64,000 bases of DNA from positions 27,324-91,323 of the IMG/VR virus record IMGVR_UViG_3300031994_000050; one strand, 5' to 3'. Source of the DNA: a virus (Duplodnaviria > Caudoviricetes). The position numbers and the translations under genes are program-made. Numbering within the stretch: the first letter of the stretch is position 1; every line of letters starts with the position of its first letter. Positions 23,675 to 64,000 of this stretch are shown one piece after another. The notes beneath the pieces are model-generated. The model was given only the letters and a program-made list of their open reading frames with translations, had not been told where the DNA came from and ran no database searches.

Positions 23675-23842
23675 ATCACATTTCAATAAACCTTTACTGC
23701 GCCAGACTTGCAGTGTTTTAAACTTATCAATGTGTCGTATAAAGTATGCGCCGTCGAAAAATCTTGATTGCTAGATTTTAAGTATACTTTACACATAAGT
23801 TTTTTGGCGTTGATGCAATCATTTAATACTACCAAGGGTTAA

Positions 23843-23900
23843 TGCGACGGTAGGAGTCGAACCTACGTCATGTTTCGTTCTGCCGTTGAACTACGTCGCA
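23843..23900 (-). ncRNA. tRNA-like RNA lacking the anticodon arm
   Basis: TGCGACG-TA-GTTC AACGGCA GAAC-GAAACATGAC-GTAGG TTCGACT CCTAC-CGTCGCA. Confidence 0.65.
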
Positions 23901-23972: not shown

Positions 23973-24043
23973 CGGCGCTGATAGGAGTTGAACCTACGTC
24001 TAGGCAGTCAAAGTGCCATGCACTACCGTTGTGCTACAGCGCT
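23973..24043 (-). tRNA. tRNA-Gln(UUG)
   Basis: Cloverleaf: AGCGCTG acceptor (1:72 mismatch), GCAC/GTGC D stem, TGGCA-CTTTGAC-TGCCT anticodon arm, GTAGG-TTCAACT-CCTAT T arm; no encoded CCA. Confidence 0.8.
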
Positions 24044-25963: not shown

Positions 25964-26351
25964 TTTTGTGGTACAAAATATTACCCTAAAAAGTTTTGTG
26001 GTACAAAACCCTTACCTTGAAAAGTTTTGTGGTACAAAATGCAGGGTTTTGTGGTACAAAATGTTACCTTGATAGAGTTTTGTGGTACAAAACTATTTAT
26101 TTTGTGGTACAAAACTCGAAACCCGCTCTGGTGCTGAGTTATTTTGTGGTACAAAACTATTTCGAGGGGTTTTGGGGTACAAAACTATTACCTCGTCTGG
26201 GTTTTGTGGTACAAAACTCTCTCTTTTCTCTATTTTTGGTATCGGCATATATAGCAAAATGACACTTTTTTTAGAAGGTTTTGTGGTACAAAACTCAGAA
26301 AGCCCATAACCACGCGGTTTTATTTTGTGGTACAAAACTTGTGGTACAAAA
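25964..26351. repeat. Array of 12 palindromes TTTTGT-GGT-ACAAAA
   Basis: Copies start at 25964, 25994, 26025, 26047, 26078, 26100, 26142, 26170 (one mismatch), 26202, 26279, 26323 and 26339 (partial). Confidence 0.95.
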
Positions 26352-26353
26352 CT

Positions 26354-26383
26354 ATTTTATAACCGAATAGGGTATGGTGTCAA
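26354..26383 (-). promoter_or_regulatory. sigmaA promoter firing leftward into the palindrome array
   Basis: TTGACA-18 nt-TAAAAT. Confidence 0.55.
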
Positions 26384-26574: not shown

Positions 26575-26895
26575 TGTCTATATTTAACACGGGTGAATGT
26601 GCGGATTATTCAGTGTTTATGCGGGTTTGCGCGACTTCTTTTTTAGTGTCACCGCGATTTGTTTTAATTTGCCACCCCACCAATAATTTTTAAAGACATA
26701 ATATTTTCATTCTAAAAAGTCATTATTTAGAAACAGCTAGTATCATTTATAACAGCTATGAATATAATAAAAACTAATACCAAGAAACAGCTTAAAGTAT
26801 AAATCAAACATAATATAAACAAAGTAATAGAATGATAAGACTGTATATTTATATTGGTATATATGTAGTAATGGAGATGTGCAACAGAGGGTGGC

Positions 26896-27590
26896 TCGGA
26901 CACTTCGTTGTCCGATGCCTTCTCGCCTACGGCGATTACAGGGGAGTATCCGAGGGTCATTGTGTCTCATCTTGAATAGAGCAGAGGGATAGCAAGAAAT
27001 ATAAACAGAGAAATAATCAAGTACCCAAACCCACAGGGCTTTATCTTGTGTGAGCGTCACGACTCGTCTCACGACTCGCTGTTTATAGTCCGCAATGCAC
27101 ACATCCGTGTGTGCAAAGCTCAGTAGGCACACCAAGTTCCGACTAAGTGGCTAAGATTGTCTGTTACTTCGTGTAACAGCCAATTTTACCCACTAAGTCT
27201 CCACATTATAGTATGGGAAAGTTCTAAGGGTCTAAATAACAGCCCCTAAGAACTTTCGGCAGAACCCGACAAGGGTGTGGGTTTGAGGTAAACACATTGC
27301 TATCGTGCGCCACTACACATCACCGCGCCACGAACCACGTTAAATCCGCACGTTCCTACGAAACCGAGCCTTTTAAAAGCCAAAAATACTTGTAGGCTCG
27401 TTTTCTGGCTAACGACTCAAACCCCATAAAGTTTTAATAATATTTTTATACAATCTGTCAATAACAGCTATATCAAAATTAAAAGCTGTGTTGACAGATT
27501 ATACAAAAATATTCCTAAAACTTTACAAGCCCTTGTCTGAACCTGCCAATTCACTAACCTTTGCTAAAGCAAAGCTAAGTGAATCCATAC
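26896..27590 (-). other. Cluster of hairpins with cGNAg triloops (putative single-strand origin / ssDNA control region)
   Basis: Minus-strand cGAAg/cGTAg loops at 26896-26915, 26923-26935, 27161-27179 and 27352-27364; long hairpins at about 27143-27197, 27217-27257 and 27427-27525. Confidence 0.55.
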
Positions 27591-28566: not shown

Positions 28567-28599
28567 TCGCCTAGAGGTTAACAGCCTCTAGGCTTTTTT
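28567..28599 (+). terminator. Intrinsic terminator
   Basis: GCCTAGAGG-TTAACAG-CCTCTAGGC followed by a T run. Confidence 0.85.
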
Positions 28600-28643
28600 T
28601 ATGCCAGTTTACCGAGTATATCGAAATTTAATAATGCTCTTGT

Positions 28644-28711
28644 GCCACTCCACTCCATTTCAGTCAAGAGACGCTTCGCTTCTGCTCTTGACTTCCATTC
28701 CGCTACATGGC
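28644..28711 (-). promoter_or_regulatory. GTCAAG/CTTGAC hairpin element, copy 1
   Basis: GCCA-CTCC...GTCAAGAG...CTCTTGAC...CTACA-TGGC; the minus strand has a GCGAAGC loop and three GNA/GNA zippers. Confidence 0.6.
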
Positions 28712-29493
28712 GAGTAAATGTTGTACTTAATAAAACGAAAGGAGCAAACGAATGAATCAAATCGAAATTATATATAACAAAGAAAAACAAACATATAATC
28801 TATTCGTAAATAACGAATGGTACGCAGAGGGAGATTATGAATAAATCGATAAGATGGTTACGAATATACGCAACTGCGAAATAGAAGAAGAGGAAGAATG
28901 GGAATTTGCAGAGGAGGACACATGGGATGAATAAGAGAAAGAAACCAGTGCAAATAGGAATCTTAAGAACAGTTGATTTCATAGTAATCAGAATCACAAT
29001 ATTCAATAAGAGCAAATTAATATGGATAAGACGCGATGTGATGGAATTTGATATGTTCTGTATAGCAATAATGATAATGATAAATCTCTTGATAATAAGC
29101 TTAACGCGCAGAGCAGAAATGCAATGGTATGAAAGAATAGCCATTGTGCTTATTGAAAGGGCAATGATAGTTAAATACATAAAGACAAGAAAAGAAATAA
29201 ACGAAAGGTAGAAAGGAGAGTTATGGCAACTATATACACACGTTCAATCAATGGAGTGAAAATACGCTTCGGAAAGTATTCCGATAATGATTATGTAATC
29301 TATGTCGGAAACAGGTTATATGCAGAGATTGACAACTTGGCAGACGCAAACAGGGAATATAACAATGTGGATGAACGAGTTGTCAAATATCTGGGTATGT
29401 AACAGCTTCGCTGTGTTAAAGAATACAGGAAGAATAGTGTCTACGACGCAAAAATGAAAAATAAAAAAATCGAAAAAGTGAAGGAGGTAAAAA

Positions 29494-29682
29494 ATGAACA
29501 TAGTTAACGTTCTAAACTTGTATAAGAGATTATACAAGGAAACAGAAGTCAAGGTTGAGAATCACAACATGCGGATTATCGACGAAAAGACAGGACTAAA
29601 CTACATAGTAGATAAAGAGAGCGATATTCCAAAGATATTCTCAACAATAGGCAGAATGAGGACGGATTTAATGATGACGTAG
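29494..29682 (+). CDS. Hypothetical protein
   Basis: SD AAGGAGG. Confidence 0.65.
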   Translation: MNIVNVLNLYKRLYKETEVKVENHNMRIIDEKTGLNYIVDKESDIPKIFSTIGRMRTDLMMT

Positions 29683-29694
29683 AAAGAAGGTAAT

Positions 29695-29949
29695 ATGGAG
29701 GAATTATTCACAACAAAAGGAAAAGGTGAAGAATTAAAAGCAATTTACCAAGACAATAAATTTAAAGTTGTGTTTGTATACCCAGACGGCTCAAGATATG
29801 AAGCAGACGAAACAAATGATGTTTCAACTCTGGTTGAATCATACAACTTTTGGGGATTGCTTACAGGCTTATTTAACACTCCAATCGAAAGTAGTCAAGT
29901 TGAAAAGCACTTGACAACTTCCTCATTACGTGTTGATGAGAAAATGTAA
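29695..29949 (+). CDS. Hypothetical protein
   Basis: ORF track; 3' end overlaps hairpin element 2. Confidence 0.55.
   Translation: MEELFTTKGKGEELKAIYQDNKFKVVFVYPDGSRYEADETNDVSTLVESYNFWGLLTGLFNTPIESSQVEKHLTTSSLRVDEKM
29875..29934 (-). promoter_or_regulatory. GTCAAG/CTTGAC hairpin element, copy 2
   Basis: AACA-CTCC...GTCAAGTTGAAAAGCACTTGAC...TTACG-TGTT. Confidence 0.6.
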
Positions 29950-29982
29950 TTGAAAAAATGAATCAAAAAAGGAGAATAAAAA

Positions 29983-30357
29983 ATGAAAAACGAAGAAGCA
30001 ATTATGCAGATGAGAGTAAACCTTATGAGAAATAGACAGATTGGAACGACAGGAAGAAAGATGATGTGGCATGATGTGGATGGAAATGAGATTGAGATTG
30101 ATGAACCCGCTGAAATCCATACATATGCAGGATGGAAGAAGTTGGGGTATCAAGTACCGACAGGAACAAGAGCAAGAATCTTTATTCCTATCTGGAACTC
30201 GATTACACTTGGAGACGGTTCAACATCAATGATGCAGTCAAACAGAGCATTCTTCACGCCAGAACAGGTACAAAGAATCGAAGAAGAAGTAAACAATGTG
30301 CTTGAAGTGCCTAATGCAGGAGTGATGGAAGAGTTGAAAGATATGGCAATTAATTAA
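29983..30357 (+). CDS. ArdC N-terminal-like (ssDNA-binding) protein
   Basis: HTYAGWKKLGYQVPTGTRA.I.IPIW...AFFTPEQV matches the T..W..LG..V.KGE pattern of ArdC-N. Confidence 0.6.
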   Translation: MKNEEAIMQMRVNLMRNRQIGTTGRKMMWHDVDGNEIEIDEPAEIHTYAGWKKLGYQVPTGTRARIFIPIWNSITLGDGSTSMMQSNRAFFTPEQVQRIEEEVNNVLEVPNAGVMEELKDMAIN

Positions 30358-30361
30358 GAAA

Positions 30362-30499
30362 ATATGCGGTGGCGGAATAGAAGTCTTCAAAAGGGAAGAT
30401 GATACATGCATTATGCATAGCGTAGACGCTTATACTCGTAAGAAGCTTGGTTCGAGAATATCATGGCTTCATGTAAGGTGCAAATCCTTACCCGCATAT
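30362..30499 (+). ncRNA. tRNA-like RNA 1 (expanded D loop, no canonical anticodon arm)
   Basis: ATATGCGG-TGGCGGAATAG..insert..GTAGACGC...CAT-GTAAGG TGCAAAT CCTTAC-CCGCATAT. Confidence 0.6.
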
Positions 30500-30501
30500 A
30501 G

Positions 30502-30585
30502 TGCTGTGGTGGCGGAAAGAGGTAGACGCAACGCTGACGAGCGTGACAGATGATTCATGTAAGGTTCAAATCCTTACCCACAGCA
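30502..30585 (+). ncRNA. tRNA-like RNA 2
   Basis: TGCTGTGG-TGGCGGAAAGAGGTAGACGC-A-ACGCT GACG AGCGT...CAT-GTAAGG TTCAAAT CCTTAC-CCACAGCA. Confidence 0.65.
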
Positions 30586-30624
30586 TCACCAGAAATGGTG
30601 AGCATAGTAAATCTTCTTTCAAAA

Positions 30625-30730
30625 GACCGTGATGATGGAAAGGGTAGACAAAATTAAGCGGATTGCTTAATGGATAAGTGCAAAAGCGGAAAAAGCTTAT
30701 CATGCAAGGTTCAAATCCTTGCTCACGGTT
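30625..30730 (+). ncRNA. tRNA-like RNA 3
   Basis: GACCGTGA-TGATGGAAAGGGTAGACA..TTAAGCG GAT TGCTTAA...CAT-GCAAGG TTCAAAT CCTTGC-TCACGGTT. Confidence 0.55.
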
Positions 30731-30759
30731 TAAAAATAATAAAAGGAGAGGAAAAAAAG

Positions 30760-30972
30760 ATGAAAATAATAAGAAAAGACAAAAAAGGAAAGATTTTCGG
30801 AAACTTACCAATAGGAACTGTATTTACAACAGAAAACAACGAATTATGTTTGAAGGTGCAGGATAGCGACATAATAGATAACGCATACGATTTGGAGAAA
30901 AAGAAAATTATATATGTACCGCCATTTGAAAAAGTAGTAGAGAAAAAAGCAAAGATAATAATAGGAGAATAA
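30760..30972 (+). CDS. Hypothetical protein
   Basis: Start moved to ATG 30760 after SD AGGAGAGG. Confidence 0.6.
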   Translation: MKIIRKDKKGKIFGNLPIGTVFTTENNELCLKVQDSDIIDNAYDLEKKKIIYVPPFEKVVEKKAKIIIGE

Positions 30973-31126
30973 ATATGAAATACAAAATAGAATACAAAGA
31001 AAAAGGGAAAATAAAAAGAGCGGAAATAGAAGCAAAGAATATGAAAGAGGCAAAAGAAAAGGCATTGGTAAAATACGGACACGAAACAATGTCGATAGAA
31101 GAAAAATAAGAAAAGAGGAAACAAAT

Positions 31127-32038
31127 ATGAGAGGATATAAGGCATTTAATATGGATTTGACATGTAGAGATATGCAGTACGAAATAGGTAAGGAATATAT
31201 TTTTGAAGGCAAGCCAATAGCGTGCAAACAAGGATTTCATTTTTGTGAAACAATAGCTGAATGTTATCAATTCTACCCAATGTCAAGCAGTACAAGGATA
31301 TGCAAAATAGAAGCAAACGGCGATATTGTGAAAGATGGAATTAAATATATAACAAATAAAATCAAGATTATTGAAGAAATAACAAAAGAGAATATTAAGA
31401 GAGGTAATAAAGGCTATAATAATAGCGGCTATAGAAATGAAGGACATTATAACAGCGGAGAATGCAACAACGGCGCTTATAACAGTGGCGATATGAACAA
31501 TGGAAACAACAACAGCGGAAATAGAAATATTGGAAGTTTTAACAGTGGAGCGATTAATATAGGTCAAGGTAACAGTGGAGATAATAATATAGGAAATTTA
31601 AACAGCGGAAATGAAAATATAGGATATAAAAATAGTGGCAATCATAATACTGGTGATTGTAACAGCGGCGAGTGGAATAGTGGGAATTATAACAGCGGGT
31701 TATTTAACACAGAAATGAAGCCAACAATGAAGATGTTTGATAAAGAATCTTCATGGACATATAGTGATTGGTATAAAAGCCAAGCAAAAAGAATAATGGA
31801 TAGGTGTCCAAATAGTTACACTCAATTTGTCTTTGTAGAAGATATGACAGAAGAAGAAAAAGAAAATCATCCAGAATATAAAACCATAGGAGGCTTTATA
31901 GAAACAGTCAAAATAACAAAAGAAGAGAGACAAGGGTGGTGGGATAACCTTGGAGAAAAAGATAAGAATGAAATAAAAGCACTTCCGAATTTTGATGAAA
32001 AGAAATTCTGTGAATGCGTAGGAATAGAACATATTTAA
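31127..32038 (+). CDS. Pentapeptide (NSGxx) repeat phage protein
   Basis: N-terminal GYKAF..DLTCR..QYEIG...GFHFC domain, then NSGxxNxG repeats and a WW...LPNFD..KF.E C-terminus. Confidence 0.85.
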   Translation: MRGYKAFNMDLTCRDMQYEIGKEYIFEGKPIACKQGFHFCETIAECYQFYPMSSSTRICKIEANGDIVKDGIKYITNKIKIIEEITKENIKRGNKGYNNSGYRNEGHYNSGECNNGAYNSGDMNNGNNNSGNRNIGSFNSGAINIGQGNSGDNNIGNLNSGNENIGYKNSGNHNTGDCNSGEWNSGNYNSGLFNTEMKPTMKMFDKESSWTYSDWYKSQAKRIMDRCPNSYTQFVFVEDMTEEEKENHPEYKTIGGFIETVKITKEERQGWWDNLGEKDKNEIKALPNFDEKKFCECVGIEHI

Positions 32039-32062
32039 AGAAAGTGAGGATGATAGTTAAGC

Positions 32063-34878
32063 ATGAAGAAGAGCGAGATAAAAAAGGTAACAAATAATGA
32101 ATTGATAACGGAGTATGTAAGAACGTATTCCCTTCGTGATGTAAACTGGATATTGGAAAGAGGAACAGAACGTTTAAGCAGACAGTGCAAAGACTTGGAA
32201 AAGGAACTTATAGCACGTGGAATATTAACGACGGAAGATGTTAATTATTTGAATAGATAAGGAGAAAAAATGAAATCATATGAAGACGTACTTAAGGAAG
32301 CATGGGAGCTTGCAGGAAGAATAGATAAAGAATTTACGGAAGGAGAACTAGTTAAGATTTTTGGATATTGCGCACCATATGAAATAATTGACGCACTAAA
32401 CCCAAAGGAAGCAATCCAAAAAATTAATGAATACGATAACCGTAACGTAGAAGTGGGTGATGAGGTAGAATTTAATAAATTTGAGAATAGCGAAGGGAAA
32501 TACGGTGTTTTAATTCAAGTAAAAACTGAAAACAGCCCATGTAGAGATGTAATAGCATTAACAGACAAGGGTGAAGTGTGTATATGGAACAGAACGGATT
32601 TCATAAAGACAGGAAGAAAATTCCCAGAGATAGAAGAGGTATTAAAACAGATGCAGGAGGGCGAAGATGAGTAAAAGTCATTTAAGAGCAATAGCACGTC
32701 ATTTGATAGGTAAGGTATTAGGACTTAAGGTTGCGGCAAAAAACATAGATATAGAAGAATACGAGGGCATTTTTGTAATACCAGAATACCTTGTTTTCTC
32801 AATCAAAGGTGTTGAAACAGTTAAATATACATTAAGAGAACAGCCAAACGGCAAATATAGATTTTACATCAATGGAGCGTTTGTATGTAGGTTAGAATTA
32901 TCTGATTTTGAGGTTGAATAATCTATGAGTGATGAACTTTTTGAAATATTTATAGAAATGTTAGAAGAAGCATTTATGATACTGGATAAGACGGAAGAAG
33001 AGGGATAAGTAATGAAAGAAGAGAAGCCATATATAATAGAAACAATTACGATACAAAAGAAGAAATACAATCCAAATTACGGGGATAACAGAATGTGTGT
33101 ATGCGGACATACATATTACAGACATTTTGACCCATGGAACGACATGGAAGCTGTAGGATGTAAGTATTGCGGGTGTCAAGAATTTGTAGAAGCAAAAAGT
33201 GAGGATAAAGAATGACAGTAAAGCAAATGATTAAGAAGCTTTCAAAATATCCAGAAGATGCAAAAGTACTAATTCCAAATGATGAAATGCACATAGAAGG
33301 GATGTACTATGCAACAAACATTGAAGAATATGATGACGGCACAGTTCTAATTGATACTGATTACGAGAAAAGATTTAAAGAATAGGATGAGGAGGAAAAC
33401 GAAGAATGCCAACCAGAAGAACAACAAAAGAAAAAGCGAAAGAAGCAATTAGAGAAGCATACGGAAATTCTGAATATACAGAAGAAATAATCAAAGCACT
33501 AGAACAAGAGCCATTTATAAACAAGGCATGTGTATCAAGCAACGTATGTAAACATGACAAAGCAGTTGCTCTTGAGAAGATAAAAACAGAGATAGAACAA
33601 ATTGAATTACTCGCAAGATATACAAGAGGAGATATTAAACAAATGGCAATTGATATAATTGACAAGTACAAGGCAGAAAGTGAGGAAAAAGAATGACAAG
33701 AGAAGAAGTAATAGATTTACTAAAAAAAGATAAATCACAGAGAGGAAAGTGTTTTGTATCTGATGCGCTTGATATAGCAATAAACGTACTAGAACAAGAG
33801 CATGATATTAACAAGATAAAAGCAGAGATAAAGCACCGTTCAGAGCATTTCATCAATGAAGATGGAGAGAATTGTTTAGCATTATATGAAGATGATGTTA
33901 TTGAAATTCTTACAAAGTATATAAAAAGAGAGGAAAAAGGGATGATAAAACATGTGGGATTTGCCGCATTAAAACAGAAACCAGAAAGAGAAGGACATTG
34001 GATTGATAATCATAACGGCACTATTTCATGTAGTAGCTGTCAGACATGGTTTCACAAAGATGATAGATATTCTTATATGCATTATTGTCCTAATTGCAAA
34101 GCAAAGATGAAAGAAAGTGAGAGCGAATAATGAATTATGATGTAGTCGATGTATTAACAGTTTCTTTTGAGAGTGGAATAAAGGAAGAATCAGCAATATG
34201 TGTCGCTCGAAAACATGGAGAAGAAATAACTATACTAAAAATGGAATTAGGAGAGCAAGCAGATATTTTATATCATCTTTTAACAGAACAAAAAGCAAAA
34301 GCCAAAATAAAGACAGAAAGTGAGGAAAAGTAATGGCAGAGATAGTATTAAAGATACCCAAAGAATTTGAAGAGAATTTCAACACAGATAAATTCAGAGA
34401 GTGCTTTATGCGTGTATTATTTGACTGTAAAGCATGGGATTACACAGGAATAAGTGGAAATTATGAACATGAAACACTTGAAATGCTACTTGATGCGTTC
34501 AACGAAGCGGTAGTGATTCCTAAAGGACACGGAAGAATAGGCGATTTAGACGCGATTAAAAAAGACATGCAGAATTACCATGATGATTGTGCAAAAACAA
34601 GTGAATATACAAGATTAGGGTTTGAAACTGCTATAGCAGTAGTAGAAGATGCAAATGCAATTATAGAAGCAGATAAGAAAGGGAAGGAATGAATGCAGAT
34701 TAGATGTAAGGAATGTAGACACTATCAAAGCCGTTATTCAGATGGATATAAAACATCTCTATGCAAGAAACATAGTCTAAATAACAAGAAGTTGCAAGTA
34801 AAAGAAAATTTTTATTGCGCAGACGCGGAAAAGAAACAAAGATTATTAGGAATAGAAGCAGATAAGGAGGAAGAATAA
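32063..34878 (+). CDS. Run of small hypothetical ORFs (32063-32260, 32270-32674, 32667-32921, 33012-33215, 33406-33696, 33693-34130 with Zn ribbon, 34130-34333, 34333-34692, 34693-34878)
   Basis: Head-to-tail ORFs with overlapping stop/start codons and shared junction motifs. Confidence 0.7.
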
Positions 34879-34920
34879 AAACCATGAAAAGAGAAAAGAT
34901 AGACGATACATAGAATAGTT

Positions 34921-34980
34921 ACCACTCCGCTCACGAGTTGTCAAGTTGAAAAGCACTTGACTACTCGTTCACTACATGGT
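34921..34980 (-). promoter_or_regulatory. GTCAAG/CTTGAC hairpin element, copy 3
   Basis: ACCA-CTCC...GTCAAGTTGAAAAGCACTTGAC...CTACA-TGGT; 22-nt core identical to copy 2. Confidence 0.6.
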
Positions 34981-35030: not shown

Positions 35031-36926
35031 ATGAATATAACAAATGAGATGTGCAATTGGTTAAATGAACATGAAGTAGCATATGAAAGAAGCGCAGTTG
35101 AAAAAATTAAAAATGTATGGGAAAGTAATAAAGCTGATTTATTGGAAAAGTTCAGAAAACATCCAAATTGGGATGAAGAGAACCTTGCAATAGTATTCAA
35201 GGAATCAGAGTATGAAAGAGCGCTTAATAAATCCGCAATAGAAGATTTCAATAATTGGGTAGAAAAAATAATGAGAAGAAAATTAAGAGAGGTAAGTAAA
35301 ACTGATGAATATAATAAAGCAAACATAAAGAGAAGTAAGTTAGAAGACGCAGTATATTACTTGAAGTATGATTGTTTCGATGGAATGAACTTGATGATAA
35401 ACGGAGAACCAGCAAGAACAGTAATAGACGAAAGATATGAGAAAGCGCGTTTGGAATATAGAAAAATATCAAATGAAACACAAACGTTATTAAGCGAAAG
35501 AGTTGATTTGGAAACATACGAAAAATACAGAAAAGTATTATTAGCATTAAGAGAATTCGTTAATGTAGAAACAAATTCTGCAACAGAGGAATTGGCAGAA
35601 AGAGTAAATTATCTCATTCCAGATATTAAGGCGGTAGCAGGACAGAAGATTTCAAGAATTATCCAGAAAGTATGCAAAACAATTGATTTGGATAAGTACG
35701 TAGAAATTAATGATTATGGAACATACACAAGAGACGATGGATATAATCGACAGTATGCAATTCTCTGTAATGAGATTAATCCGATTAAGTATAAGAGGAT
35801 TACAGTAATTTCATTGAATCCAATTGACTATTGGAGCATGTCACATGGTTATAATTGGAAGTCATGTCATTACGTAGGAGATGATGAGGACGGATGTTAT
35901 TCAAGCGGAACAGAAAGTTACATGCTTGACAGCACATCATTAATTTATTACGTAATTGATGAGAGCTATGAAGGAACAGAGTATTACAAGCAGAAGAAAA
36001 TAAATAGAGCAGTATTCTGTATAGGCGAAGAGGGAAATGCAATTCTCGAAGCAAGAGTATATCCAGATGACAGAGATGGAGGTGATAATTCACTAGGAAA
36101 ACAGTTTAGAGATGTAATGTCAAAAGTAATTTCAGATATCTACAATGTAAACAACTATTGGAGCATAGTAAAAGGCTCATCAGAATGTGGTGATAGAACA
36201 AGAAGCTACGGAACACATTACAGGGATTATGTTGAATACTCAAACGGAGTAATGATGATTAATAAATCATATGACGGCGAAGTATGCATCGAAATTGGAC
36301 ATGACCCAATCTGTCCTGTGTGCGGAGATGAGCATGGTGAAACAGAAAATATCATATGTTCAGATTGCTTGAATGATATAAGATACAATAACCCACAAAC
36401 ATGTGCAAGATGCGGAGAGAGATTTGATGGTGATGGATATGAAGCAGTATACACAGAAGACGGAAATTGGTATTGCTGTGATGCTTGTGCAGAAGAAGAT
36501 GGATATAGAAGAGATAGTGATGGATATTGGTATTCAGAGGATGAACTGTATTATTGCGACGACGATAGAGAATATCATCACGAAGATGATTGCTACATGG
36601 ATAATTATAATGAAATTTATTACAGTGGAGAACCATACATAACAACAGTAGACGGAAACAATTATTCATGTGAAGAAAACGCAGAAAATGATGGTTATGT
36701 GGAGGTAGATGGTGAATGGATAAGCGAAGATGATACAATCGAAATCGACGGAGAGTTATACAATAGAGAGGACGAAGATTTGGTATGGATTGACGATGAT
36801 ACAGCGTTTACAAGCGAGGAGGATGCAGAAAATGCGGGATATGTAAAGTTAGAGGATGATAATTGGGTAAGTAGAACAGAAGCAACATATGACGAAGAAA
36901 ATGGCGTATGGAGGACAATCGCATGA
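35031..36926 (+). CDS. Large protein with a conserved central domain and Cys/acidic zinc-finger repeats
   Basis: SLNPIDYWSMS..NWKSCH...YMLD...RVYP core; CPVC, CSDC, CARC, CDAC; D/E/Y-rich C-terminal repeats. Confidence 0.8.
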   Translation: MNITNEMCNWLNEHEVAYERSAVEKIKNVWESNKADLLEKFRKHPNWDEENLAIVFKESEYERALNKSAIEDFNNWVEKIMRRKLREVSKTDEYNKANIKRSKLEDAVYYLKYDCFDGMNLMINGEPARTVIDERYEKARLEYRKISNETQTLLSERVDLETYEKYRKVLLALREFVNVETNSATEELAERVNYLIPDIKAVAGQKISRIIQKVCKTIDLDKYVEINDYGTYTRDDGYNRQYAILCNEINPIKYKRITVISLNPIDYWSMSHGYNWKSCHYVGDDEDGCYSSGTESYMLDSTSLIYYVIDESYEGTEYYKQKKINRAVFCIGEEGNAILEARVYPDDRDGGDNSLGKQFRDVMSKVISDIYNVNNYWSIVKGSSECGDRTRSYGTHYRDYVEYSNGVMMINKSYDGEVCIEIGHDPICPVCGDEHGETENIICSDCLNDIRYNNPQTCARCGERFDGDGYEAVYTEDGNWYCCDACAEEDGYRRDSDGYWYSEDELYYCDDDREYHHEDDCYMDNYNEIYYSGEPYITTVDGNNYSCEENAENDGYVEVDGEWISEDDTIEIDGELYNREDEDLVWIDDDTAFTSEEDAENAGYVKLEDDNWVSRTEATYDEENGVWRTIA

Positions 36927-63038: not shown

Positions 63039-64000
63039 GTGAAGCCTCACACGACTAAAGTCGCGTGCTTCCTATTGCCACAATCTACGTTGTGGTTGCC
63101 TTTTAGGGCATCGGACTGCGTTTCTGTCCATACGGCTAAAACTCAGTACTTAGGCAACTAATATGTTGTCTAAGACCGCATTTAAGCTAATAAGGTCAGC
63201 CAACGTGCAGGTGCTTCTCTTAGAGCACTGAGGGACTTTAGCCTCAATGTCCAACCTGTCCGTCACCGAACAGGATTTTAAAATTTCTCGTATATAATAA
63301 CGAGCTGCTATATTATACGAAGCGTTAAGGTCGCAATTGTATGTTTTGCCATTTTGAAATCTACACAAACTGTATGTAGGCATATCTGCGTCCTTACCTC
63401 GAAGAACTCTGCCACTGCCATCGAAAGCTAGTCGTGATGTCCCCCATGCGCAAATATGAGATATCCTCATACTAAGTCTGTGAGCCTTGTCTGTTACCAT
63501 AGATTGCACGTACTTTGCCTTCCACATATGGAGCTTTTGTTTCTTAGAGCCACGCTTTTTACCTGCAAAGTCCAAGTGCTCAAAAACTATGGTGTCAGCA
63601 TTGTACATTACGGCTGTATCTATGATAAAGTTAGTTGTTTTAACAGCTATATCATCGTTAATACCTTTAACTTTAGCCCACAGTCTCGGCATCTTGCGGT
63701 TACCATACTGCTGGGCTTTCTTTATACGGTTTACAGCATGGTTCAAACGGTCTGTTTCACTTGGCAGTCTAAGGAAACGTCTGCCGTAGATAGTGCCTTT
63801 TGAATCCATGACGCAACACGTACATGCTGAATTTAAACCAAGGTCAACGCCAACTACAAGGCTGTTTGTATCTGTAAGAGTAGCCTTTTCTTCAAACGGG
63901 AAGTCTAAAAACCATTCTTTACCTCGTTTCTGAAGCGTAGGAGCGCACATCTTACGACCATTACACCTATGATAGATATAATCCATGTCTGATTTGCGAA
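63039..64000 (-). mobile_element. IS200/IS605-family element (right end; continues beyond the window)
   Basis: tnpB followed by a structured 3' region and the subterminal hairpin CACGCGACT-TT-AGTCGTGTG, ending in TTCAC at 63039. Confidence 0.8.
63150..64000 (-). CDS. tnpB: TnpB RNA-guided nuclease (N-terminus outside the window)
   Basis: RuvC I VGVDLG, RuvC II IVFEHL, RuvC III NCDLNASYNIA. Confidence 0.88.
   Translation of the reverse strand, partial: RKSDMDYIYHRCNGRKMCAPTLQKRGKEWFLDFPFEEKATLTDTNSLVVGVDLGLNSACTCCVMDSKGTIYGRRFLRLPSETDRLNHAVNRIKKAQQYGNRKMPRLWAKVKGINDDIAVKTTNFIIDTAVMYNADTIVFEHLDFAGKKRGSKKQKLHMWKAKYVQSMVTDKAHRLSMRISHICAWGTSRLAFDGSGRVLRGKDADMPTYSLCRFQNGKTYNCDLNASYNIAARYYIREILKSCSVTDRLDIEAKVPQCSKRSTCTLADLISLNAVLDNILVA

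Follow-up and report, generated by a model that had tools for sequence, protein, structure and literature searches.

What reads three hairpins that lie dispersed in a rumen phage genome of 91,323 bp, each just upstream of rightward genes, and on which strand are they read? All three fall within the window, that is, the whole stretch of 64,000 nucleotides that was analysed. The first-pass annotation had taken them for possible single-stranded DNA promoters, in which RNA polymerase bound to the folded minus strand would transcribe rightward, and every sequence feature on which it built that proposal was found in place.

A covariance model of the hairpin, built from 15 family members, was run on the whole 91-kb genome and located the family at three sites only, all on the minus strand (Table 1); on the plus strand the same model reached at most 18 bits. 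The inner stem GTCAAG...CTTGAC occurs four times in the window against 0.08 expected, and three of these occurrences are the hairpins. The fourth, inside the tape-measure gene, is unrelated. Copies 2 and 3 have an identical 22-nt core in common, and the GCGAAGC motif was verified on the minus-strand loop of copy 1, the only one of the three copies to carry it. Rfam covariance models detected only tRNAs in the window at gathering score, the hairpins being without a match at E-values up to 5.

Table 1. Hairpin copies and associated features (window coordinates; scores from the family covariance model)
Feature	Position	Strand	Remarks
Intrinsic terminator closing the 303-aa gene	28569..28600	+	11-bp stem, then T run
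Hairpin copy 1	28644..28711	-	68 nt; 27-nt arms, 14-nt loop; 66.3 bits
-35-like box TTGACT, copy 1	28662..28667	-	3' arm of minus-strand hairpin; read from sequence
GCGAAGC mini-hairpin motif, copy 1 loop	28673..28679	-	Read from sequence; complement on + strand
Hairpin copy 2	29875..29934	-	60 nt; 26-nt arms, 8-nt loop; 79.0 bits
-35-like box TTGACT, copy 2	29893..29898	-	Read from sequence
Hairpin copy 3	34921..34980	-	60 nt; 26-nt arms, 8-nt loop; 80.7 bits
-35-like box TTGACA, copy 3	34939..34944	-	Read from sequence

The outer stems covary as had been annotated (GCCA/TGGC, AACA/TGTT, ACCA/TGGT). In the three copies alone, changes on both sides that keep the pair are present at 7 of 26 in-register arm positions, and among the 15 members compensatory double changes occur at 16 of the 26. 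Paired cells amount to 77.9% in these members versus 60.1% in shuffles, and the covariation score is 0.529 versus 0.173, exceeded in none of 500 shuffles. RNAalifold independently returned the same fold. The hairpin is thus confirmed as real and covarying.

The fold also prefers one strand. The mismatches of the three copies are pyrimidine-pyrimidine or C-A at unpaired positions on the plus strand and purine-purine in 17 of 19 cells on the minus strand; in the family, minus-strand mismatches are likewise all purine-purine except for a few T-T and T-C cells. G-T wobbles occupy eight cells on the minus strand of the three copies and none on the plus strand, the corresponding figures for the 23 distinct family sequences being 47 and 0, and G-C/G-T polymorphisms recur in several lineages at arm positions 2, 5, 9, 10, 13 and 14. 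The consensus fold was calculated at -30.4 (minus) versus -19.3 kcal/mol (plus) with RNA parameters and at -14.3 versus -9.6 kcal/mol with DNA parameters, and for 14 of the 15 members the minus-strand fold is the more favourable one. The DNA stability predicted for the hairpins is modest (-9 to -13 kcal/mol). The best conserved part is the basal stem together with an internal loop of G-A, N, A-G at arm positions 6-8. The minus strand, which is the template for the downstream genes, is supported as the strand under structural selection.

The phage encodes a terminase, portal, DnaB-like primase/helicase, replisome organiser, Erf and SSB, in keeping with a dsDNA siphophage, as well as a small tyrosine recombinase and an IS200/IS605 TnpA; no Rep or relaxase was found in the genome, and there was no Rep_trans match. 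The three hairpins are confined to 6.3 kb, and just upstream, at 26.85-27.56 kb, there is a field of hairpins with a more favourable minus-strand fold. Copy 1 is situated 44 nt past the terminator and 41 nt ahead of the ATG at 28752; the terminator implies that the genes beyond it require a new start signal. Copy 2, which takes in the final 25 codons of an ORF (29695-29949), precedes the ATG at 29983 by 49 nt, while copy 3 stands 51 nt before the ATG (35031) of a 631-aa zinc-ribbon protein. In eight of ten AT-rich copies a Shine-Dalgarno sequence and start codon follow at +41 to +61 nt, the other two start codons being at +86 and +116, and the orientation of these genes makes the folded strand the template.

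The geometry of the folded minus strand resembles that of a promoter. TTGACN occupies arm positions 24-19 in the upper stem, and the 17-nt spacer that follows this box ends exactly at the last base pair of the helix. No AT-rich member departs from T4-G3, which places TG at -15/-14, with positions 1-2 covarying; the last pair of the helix is at -12, and the 3' base next to it (-11), the first unpaired one, is A in nine of nine distinct AT-rich variants. Both this TG and the unpaired A make the likeness to a promoter closer. That TTGAC is invariant across the wider family is in part imposed by the search pattern, which required it. As regards the polymerase reading of the first-pass annotation, the TTGAC box together with its spacer and orientation suits rightward transcription into the downstream genes, but a consistent full -10 element does not go with them. 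The annotation had itself reported no consistent -10 hexamer, and the three sites indeed read TAACTA, TAAATA and CACAAG, with an inconsistent T at -7. Nor are sigma factors known to read the G-A, N, A-G loop, the most conserved part of the element.

As duplex DNA the sites offer no usable -10. The word most like a -10 lies 19-22 bp or more from TTGAC. A sigma-70 scan returned fewer sites than shuffled sequence (28 vs 37.6), none of them using the hairpin TTGAC boxes. The sole sigma-70 candidate near copy 1 was rejected, not being conserved in a 90%-identical relative. PF00940 (T7-like RNA polymerase) had no match in six frames of the genome, in a search to which the control genomes also gave no match, and neither sigma-70 region 2 nor an RdRP-type polymerase was found in the genome. 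A 3236-aa ORF matches tape-measure PHROGs only, and a PDB sequence search with it gave no hit to the N4 virion RNA polymerase.

We tentatively read the hairpins as a small template-strand initiation signal for host RNA polymerase, a reading with a real chance of being right that falls short of probable. A narrower version, on which we are more doubtful, holds that the hairpin is a fork-junction promoter, compact and portable, which comes into being only on folding of the template strand and is used by a tailed dsDNA phage as well as by unrelated GC-rich mobile DNA. We infer that RNA polymerase binds the hairpins. When the minus strand folds, the upper stem would rebuild a duplex -35 box, and the 17-nt spacer, to which sheared G-A and G-T pairs would lend stiffness, would join this box to a short basal stem with TG; with the stop of the helix at -12 and the unpaired A at -11, the whole would have the shape of a fork-junction promoter that is already open. 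To this folded strand host sigma-A RNA polymerase could bind without melting DNA, and it could copy the 5' flank of the same strand rightward from a putative start site some 12 nt beyond the base of the helix. This would yield the mRNA of the gene block that begins at a distance of 41-61 nt and, possibly, a primer for synthesis of the complementary strand as well. On the fork-junction version, the polymerase would start whenever the strand is exposed by replication, extrusion or entry. We know of no step in the dsDNA siphophage cycle that exposes the template strand of the accessory arm; the single-stranded or extruded state might arise on the displaced strand in sigma-mode replication or by N4-style extrusion helped by SSB. 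In coliphage N4, supercoiling and SSB extrude the promoter hairpin, which is a possible route to the folded state here.

Diverged members were found in related rumen-phage contigs, in two 43%-GC contigs beside IS genes and in one 66%-GC element; none was present in 150 relatives of a host-like MAG, nor elsewhere in that MAG. The same design in the 66%-GC element fits recognition by a universal host enzyme, and a diverged ortholog (L082:3793-3860) keeps the GCGAAGC loop motif of copy 1. Several observations tell against the promoter reading, among them the modest predicted stability, the partly imposed invariance of TTGAC and the conserved G-A, N, A-G loop already described. The copy-1 ortholog L082:2789-2897 keeps the basal purine zipper and has lost the -35 geometry, TTGTAT standing at the -35 position and CTTGAC being displaced into a bulge. 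The GC-rich members, which lie about 165 nt upstream of a gene having its own ordinary promoter, have neither the TG nor the unpaired A. The T at -7 is inconsistent, as described above. Finally, at L082:5227 a terminator-like hairpin separates the element from the gene that follows, some 45 nt past the base of the element's own hairpin.

Among known systems, the first-pass annotation had likened the hairpins to Frpo-type promoters. The likeness holds in that they fold on the template strand of the downstream genes, according to both wobbles (47 vs 0) and energies, but the Frpo architecture is not that of the phage elements. The Frpo/ssi promoters of the F, ColIb-P9 and pESBL leading regions are about 300 nt long with -35 and -10 both in the stem, and such folds carry -10 mismatches and are very stable, screening having been for values below -75 kcal/mol (PMC11541004; PMC12672017). 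As in those promoters, a folded template strand here rebuilds a duplex -35 that would aim RNA polymerase at the downstream genes, and several copies precede successive accessory-gene operons and would be silent as duplex (PMC11541004; PMC12672017). The phage hairpins differ in being 60-68 nt long and of -9 to -13 kcal/mol, in holding only the -35 and TG in the stem, with the -10 at and beyond the helix end, and in residing on a dsDNA tailed phage, whereas Frpo is carried by DNA known to enter single-stranded.

With the N4 promoters P1-P3 the elements have in common that three template-strand hairpins stand before genes in a dsDNA phage and that purine-rich mini-hairpin loops of the GAA/GGA type are present (PMC13037366). 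GCGAAGC is an extraordinarily stable DNA motif which is also found in the G4 origin, RSF1010 ssiA and the N4 early promoters (PMC13037366). Unlike the 5-7 bp stems and 3-nt purine-centred loops of N4, the present hairpins have arms of 26-27 positions, loops of 8-14 nt and a host-type -35 box; the N4 hairpins are read by a T7-like virion polymerase, and no such polymerase was found in this genome. Folded strands are read by host RNA polymerase, in a strand- and orientation-specific manner, at ssoA/ssoU, the M13/f1 minus-strand origin and ICEBs1 sso1 (PMC4595007). What these sso produce, however, are short primers, on replicons for which a single-stranded circle is an obligatory stage, and a position before start codons is no sso feature. 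The defining motifs of ssoA are RSB (GAGAAAA) and, in the terminal loop, CS-6 (TAGCGT) (10.1101/2020.09.30.320143); both are absent from the loops of copies 2 and 3, and copy 1 has only AAGCGT. The exact geometry of the AT-rich members is that of the fork-junction templates of Guo and Gralla (1998), reportedly in vitro substrates of sigma-70 holoenzyme with a duplex from -35 to -12 and an unpaired non-template A at -11. Those substrates are artificial, and to our knowledge no natural element has this design.

Other readings have to be weighed against an RNA polymerase start. Exposed by displacement in sigma-mode replication or as lagging-strand template of a leftward fork, the folded minus strand might instead act as an ssi- or sso-like site that recruits the phage primase-helicase, host DnaG or RNA polymerase and yields a short primer in place of an mRNA, which we consider unlikely. 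The strand specificity, the sheared G-A and GCGAAGC motifs known from the G4 origin, RSF1010 ssiA and RNAP-dependent sso, the phage-encoded DnaB-like primase/helicase and SSB, the minus-strand-favouring hairpin field at 26.85-27.56 kb and the L082:5227 terminator, which would give a primer-sized RNA, all suit it. However, the three copies are clustered in 6.3 kb of 91 kb, priming would not call for the short, fixed distance that each keeps from the start codon after it, the ssoA hallmarks are missing, and no rolling-circle Rep was found. A dedicated phage or host protein could alternatively recognise the folded nucleic acid, and this too seems improbable, including its RNA variants, namely a leader, processing or antitermination element in the plus-strand transcript or an antisense minus-strand RNA hairpin. 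Invariant unpaired purines are typical of protein recognition, and the basal stem with its G-A, N, A-G loop is kept even where the -35 geometry is lost. Copy 2 and L082:5227, being in or at the end of upstream plus-strand ORFs, are probably transcribed, and RNA parameters strongly favour the minus strand too. Yet a plus-strand RNA would have C-A and pyrimidine mismatches where the minus strand has its wobbles, and for a minus-strand RNA, necessarily antisense, there is no leftward gene, no convincing promoter and no terminator; no Rfam family matches, and no candidate protein is common to the AT-rich phages and the GC-rich element.

An operator palindrome bound by a dimeric repressor over a weak double-stranded promoter would account for an inverted repeat with a TTGAC box 41-51 nt before genes and for a GTAAWT-like word that recurs beside several copies, 3-9 nt to their right. 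We give this little credence: copy 1 has a half-site spacing 8 bp different from that of copies 2/3, the arms covary without keeping their sequence, the outer boxes are not symmetric, a wobble bias strictly confined to one strand has no meaning in duplex DNA, and the best -10-like word is 19-22 bp or more from TTGAC. Just as little is given to a single-stranded recombination or mobility signal (attC-, REP- or IS200/IS605-end-like) marking cassette boundaries. It would agree with the gene content, which in L084 changes directly past copy 2 and in L008 some 37 nt ahead of copy 3, with the IS3 and IS21 genes adjoining the members in L073 and L094, with the two copies 1278 nt apart that flank a small cassette in the GC-rich contig L083, with a GTAG word on the 5' side as in REPs, and with the TnpA and tyrosine recombinase of the phage. 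The TnpA, however, is of the IS200 type by score (144.7 bits), reaching only 33 bits as a REP-associated transposase against a cut-off of 80, and has its own unrelated end hairpin adjacent, with no family member near it by the covariance model. The attC core sites RYYYAAC/GTTRRRY are absent and the basal stems lack conserved AAC/GTT cores, while the copies number only three, all before start codons, with none in the 150 relatives of the host-like MAG.

Promoter reading aside, the family constitutes an undescribed, strongly covarying and strand-specific motif with invariant sheared-purine loops, which must have a specific binding partner even if that reading fails. If initiation by host RNA polymerase on the folded strand is true, single-strand promoters would not be confined to conjugative leading regions and ssDNA replicons, and the hairpins would represent the first class of them read by the host polymerase beyond conjugative plasmids and such replicons. 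A single-stranded phase, or replication-coupled expression, would be implied for the phage accessory arm. At 60 nt, modular and spanning 32 to 66% GC, the element would be a handy tool and a clean substrate for melting-free promoter recognition. On the same condition, part of the gene expression of a dsDNA phage would depend on a passing single-stranded or extruded state, a timing device of a new kind for accessory and likely counter-defence genes.

The first-pass annotation had drawn attention to three dispersed hairpins with covarying stems and a TTGAC box, each ahead of a rightward gene, and this observation was confirmed. On the + strand the three sites have the consensus CACTCC, 11 nt, GTCAAG, a 10- or 18-nt centre, CTTGAC, 10 nt, YTACRTG, the two arms being of the same length and in register, and in these copies alone 7 of the 26 arm pairs show double changes that keep the pairing. 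A covariance model built on copies 2 and 3 recovers copy 1, and one built on 15 members detects the three sites and no others anywhere in the genome.

Relatives were sought with a pattern that fixed the internal-loop bases and the GTCAAG/CTTGAC stem and left the remaining arm positions free. Among GTDB genomes it found the sister phage, with identical hairpins, and among metagenome contigs 22 loci in four groups: near-identical relatives; diverged AT-rich variants (L076, L079/L080 and L082, the last with two copies, one of them detected by the covariance model only); 43%-GC contigs (L073, L094) in which the hairpin adjoins IS3- and IS21-type genes; and a 66%-GC family, in which L083, a single contig, has two copies separated by 1278 nt, beside a ribbon-helix-helix gene. 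The free arm positions do pair across the family. In the in-register alignment of the 15 members 77.9% of cells are paired (60.1% in shuffles), double changes occur at 16 of 26 pairs, and the covariation score is 0.529 against 0.173 in shuffles, exceeded by none of 500; the signal is lost when the partner is slid by 1–3 columns. RNAalifold independently gave the same fold. From the excess of pairing, the covariation and this agreement it follows that the hairpin is real and under selection.

No Rfam family matches the hairpins, and they are absent from MT835477 and from 58 viral loci encoding 24–39% identical homologues of the 631-aa protein whose gene follows copy 3. L005, from the viral scan, was rejected as a chance match within coding sequence. 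A host chromosomal repeat was likewise rejected, no copy being present in 150 relatives of the MAG holding the sister phage or elsewhere in that MAG. In L083 (MWVZ01007765.1) the two copies lie inside ~200-bp direct repeats around a 1-kb segment; next come a second repeated block of GC-rich hairpins and the ribbon-helix-helix gene, which probably has a leaderless start. The arrangement resembles a cassette array. The members in L073 and L094 (Ga0209737 contigs) have a 33-nt loop; transposase genes of IS3 and IS21 type, on the opposite strand, have their 3' ends ~20–30 nt away, and ~50 nt past the hairpin are common to both contigs before the IS sequences start.

Features of the hairpin region and its surroundings (window positions unless another sequence is named)
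Feature	Position	Strand	Remarks
tRNA matches	23842-23900; 23973-24043	minus
Array of repeated TTTTGT-GGT-ACAAAA palindromes	25964-26383		downstream of the leftward promoter
Strong leftward promoter	26383-26354	minus	TTGACA, 18 nt, TAAAAT
Non-coding, hairpin-dense region	26850-27560		between the divergent blocks
Hairpin in this region	27110-27140	minus	better minus-strand fold (-22.4 vs -17.1 kcal/mol on the + strand)
Near-perfect palindrome, 99 nt	27427-27525	minus	TTGACA in both arms; better minus-strand fold
Oppositely oriented block, 21 kb	27.6-48.8 kb	+
Hairpin copy 1	28644-28711	minus (folded)
Hairpin copy 2	29875-29934	minus (folded)
Non-coding gap	30362-30730
Weak tRNA-like match	30503-30585	+	29.9 bits
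Segment missing from sister genome	31800-34884		~3.1 kb
Hairpin copy 3	34921-34980	minus (folded)
631-aa protein	35031-36926	+	C-terminal zinc-ribbon repeats
IS200/IS605-family element	63150-64000 and genome 1-1100 (L105)		spans the arbitrary record ends
Perfect 10-bp hairpin with TTGACA	L082:1600-1690
Ortholog with copy-1-type loop	L082:3793-3860
Hairpin copy with a terminator-like hairpin before the next gene	L082:5227

The 91,323-bp IMG/VR record, whose bases 27324-91323 make up the window, is rated complete, has a 127-bp repeat at its ends and is of the siphophage type. The large terminase, portal, major head protein, tail proteins and tape-measure protein are specified by the minus strand, as is a replication module comprising a DnaB-like primase/helicase, a replisome organiser, Erf, NinB and SSB. 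A single block, rich in small ORFs, is oriented oppositely to the rest; its products include a DUF7666/pentapeptide protein, the 631-aa zinc-ribbon protein, an M28-like peptidase, an HNH endonuclease, DUF932 and DUF551 proteins, an FtsK/SpoIIIE ATPase and a short tyrosine recombinase. The 631-aa protein is a member of a large family, with 438 hits, that is often met in 50–170-kb phages, with relatives at 80–89% and at 40–55% identity. By terminase the closest deposited relatives are gut phages and Clostridium innocuum phage Maintenon (40–46% identity); megablast revealed no relatives among deposited phages or plasmids. The sister genome (L008, ~90% identical) lies within a contig of a rumen 'Bacilli' MAG. 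The right junction of the segment that it lacks is 37 nt upstream of copy 3, and in contig L084 another gene stands in place of the one after copy 2, from ~22 nt beyond the hairpin; the hairpins therefore lie at module boundaries. The weak tRNA-like match lies inside the non-coding gap past the gene following copy 2.

Across 23 distinct sequences the minus strand gives 371 Watson-Crick, 47 G-T and 157 mismatched cells, and the + strand no G-T cells. G-C/G-T polymorphisms occur in separate lineages at arm positions 2, 5, 9, 10, 13 and 14, and minus-strand pairing is always preserved (about nine independent cases, none the reverse). The other minus-strand mismatches are nearly all purine-purine, with G-A at position 6, A-G at 8 and tandem G-A/A-G at 11–12, which bears out the sheared-pair motifs noticed earlier on this strand. 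Consensus and single-sequence energies, with DNA and RNA parameters, favour the minus strand in 14 of 15 members. The copy-1-type loop reads GCGAAGC on this strand and is retained in the diverged ortholog L082:3793-3860 despite different stems; GCGAAGC is a DNA mini-hairpin reported at the G4 ori, RSF1010 ssiA and the N4 early promoters (PMC13037366). The minus strand is the template for the downstream genes, so that any RNA with the minus-strand sequence would be antisense and serve no gene; the simplest reading is folded template-strand DNA.

The geometry of the folded strand resembles that of a promoter. TTGACN occupies positions 24–19 of the minus-strand 3' arm, and the next 17 nt finish exactly at the last base pair. 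Arm positions 4–3 are T-G in all AT-rich members, which puts the TG at -15/-14, as in an extended -10; positions 1–2 covary freely. The last pair of the helix is at -12 (T-A or C-G). In all 9 distinct AT-rich flank variants an A comes next, as the first unpaired base on the 3' side. Duplex to -12 with an unpaired A at -11 is also the design of fork-junction promoter substrates. RNA polymerase placed on the folded minus strand would use the 5' flank of that strand as its template and so transcribe rightward. A Shine-Dalgarno sequence and start codon lie at +41 to +61 nt in 8 of 10 AT-rich copies, the exceptions being the two in L082 (start codons at +86 and +116), and copy 1 directly follows an intrinsic terminator. 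In L082, a diverged relative, the perfect 10-bp hairpin precedes the first gene of the rightward block; after it come, in this order, a CTACAT word and TATAAA, an echo of the right arm of the three hairpins.

Other hairpins occupy the region between the divergent blocks, mostly with better minus-strand folds, and this may be an origin or a field of single-strand signals. The rightward block's first gene lies ~125 nt downstream of the 99-nt palindrome. Owing to G-T pairs the minus-strand fold of this palindrome is the better one (-27.2 vs -24.1 kcal/mol on the + strand, z about -9), and in size it is nearer to Frpo than are the three hairpins. The TTTTGT-GGT-ACAAAA palindromes look like iterons or operators.

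Against a promoter stand several properties of the family. The remainder of the -10 is not conserved, and most copies lack T at -7. In L082 the hairpin orthologous to copy 1, 110 nt long, keeps the basal module and has TTGTAT at the -35 position, with CTTGAC displaced into a bulge; in the same contig the copy at L082:5227 is separated from the next gene by a terminator-like hairpin. GC-rich members have neither the TG nor the unpaired A and lie ~165 nt before a gene having its own canonical promoter, and across the wider family the invariance of TTGAC is in part a product of the search pattern. The best-conserved feature is the basal purine zipper, not a known sigma contact, which may be read by something other than sigma. 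A site for some other protein, or a role at the RNA level, is rather unlikely.

An ordinary double-stranded promoter was rejected, since the duplex has no -10 hexamer at 16–18 bp from the TTGAC box. Sigma-70-like sites are rarer in the region than in shuffled sequence (28 vs 37.6), and the sole weak duplex candidate, to the left of copy 1, is not intact in the sister phage. A link to the 21-bp promoter motif of phage 0305phi8-36 was also rejected, GTCAA..TTGAC not being enriched there (8 vs 10 in control). No relaxase or rolling-circle Rep was found in the phage genome, and the phage packages and replicates as dsDNA, which tells against a promoter that would need a single strand. The consistent preservation of pairing on one strand makes a duplex operator improbable. 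A priming signal of the ssi/sso type is rather unlikely. It would share the folded strand and mini-hairpin, and ssoA origins resemble the hairpins in the recognition of a folded strand by RNA polymerase, but their defining RSB and CS-6 motifs are absent here. The presence of IS200/IS605 TnpA and TnpB in the phage led us to consider attC and REP/IS200 ends. The TnpA (144.7 bits to NF033573), followed by a TnpB-like ORF, is not of the REP-associated type, and the GC-rich end hairpin upstream of tnpA is the element's own and unrelated to the three copies. A single-strand recombination or cassette signal would suit hairpins at module boundaries, and we give it little credence.

The N4 early promoters likewise combine a template-strand hairpin with a mini-hairpin loop, but they depend on a virion polymerase, and none was found in the present phage. 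An N4-like model with a phage polymerase was rejected, searches having revealed no T7-like RNAP, RdRP-type two-barrel family or sigma-70 region 2; the giant ORF (3236 aa) is the tape-measure protein. Nor did the 631-aa protein qualify as a polymerase or primase, its AlphaFold model (pLDDT 86.8) having no significant PDB fold match and weak rows that are GNAT-like, or the 303-aa product of the first gene of the rightward block as a sigma factor or regulator (no family match, no Atlas hit).

Frpo/ssi promoters, ~300 nt long with both boxes in the stem, act on transferred single strands (PMC11541004; PMC12672017). Their working principle is similar, but the three hairpins have a different architecture and hence are not Frpo members. 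The first interpretation, a single-stranded promoter like those of Frpo type, is partly supported: the covarying template-strand hairpin, the TTGAC box and the rightward orientation stand, the Frpo architecture does not. Our tentative preference, held with somewhat less than even confidence, is for a compact template-strand initiation signal, shaped like a fork-junction promoter, for the host RNA polymerase. On this reading the element would belong among the single-strand promoters and initiation signals, with an unexpected carrier and an undescribed minimal architecture.
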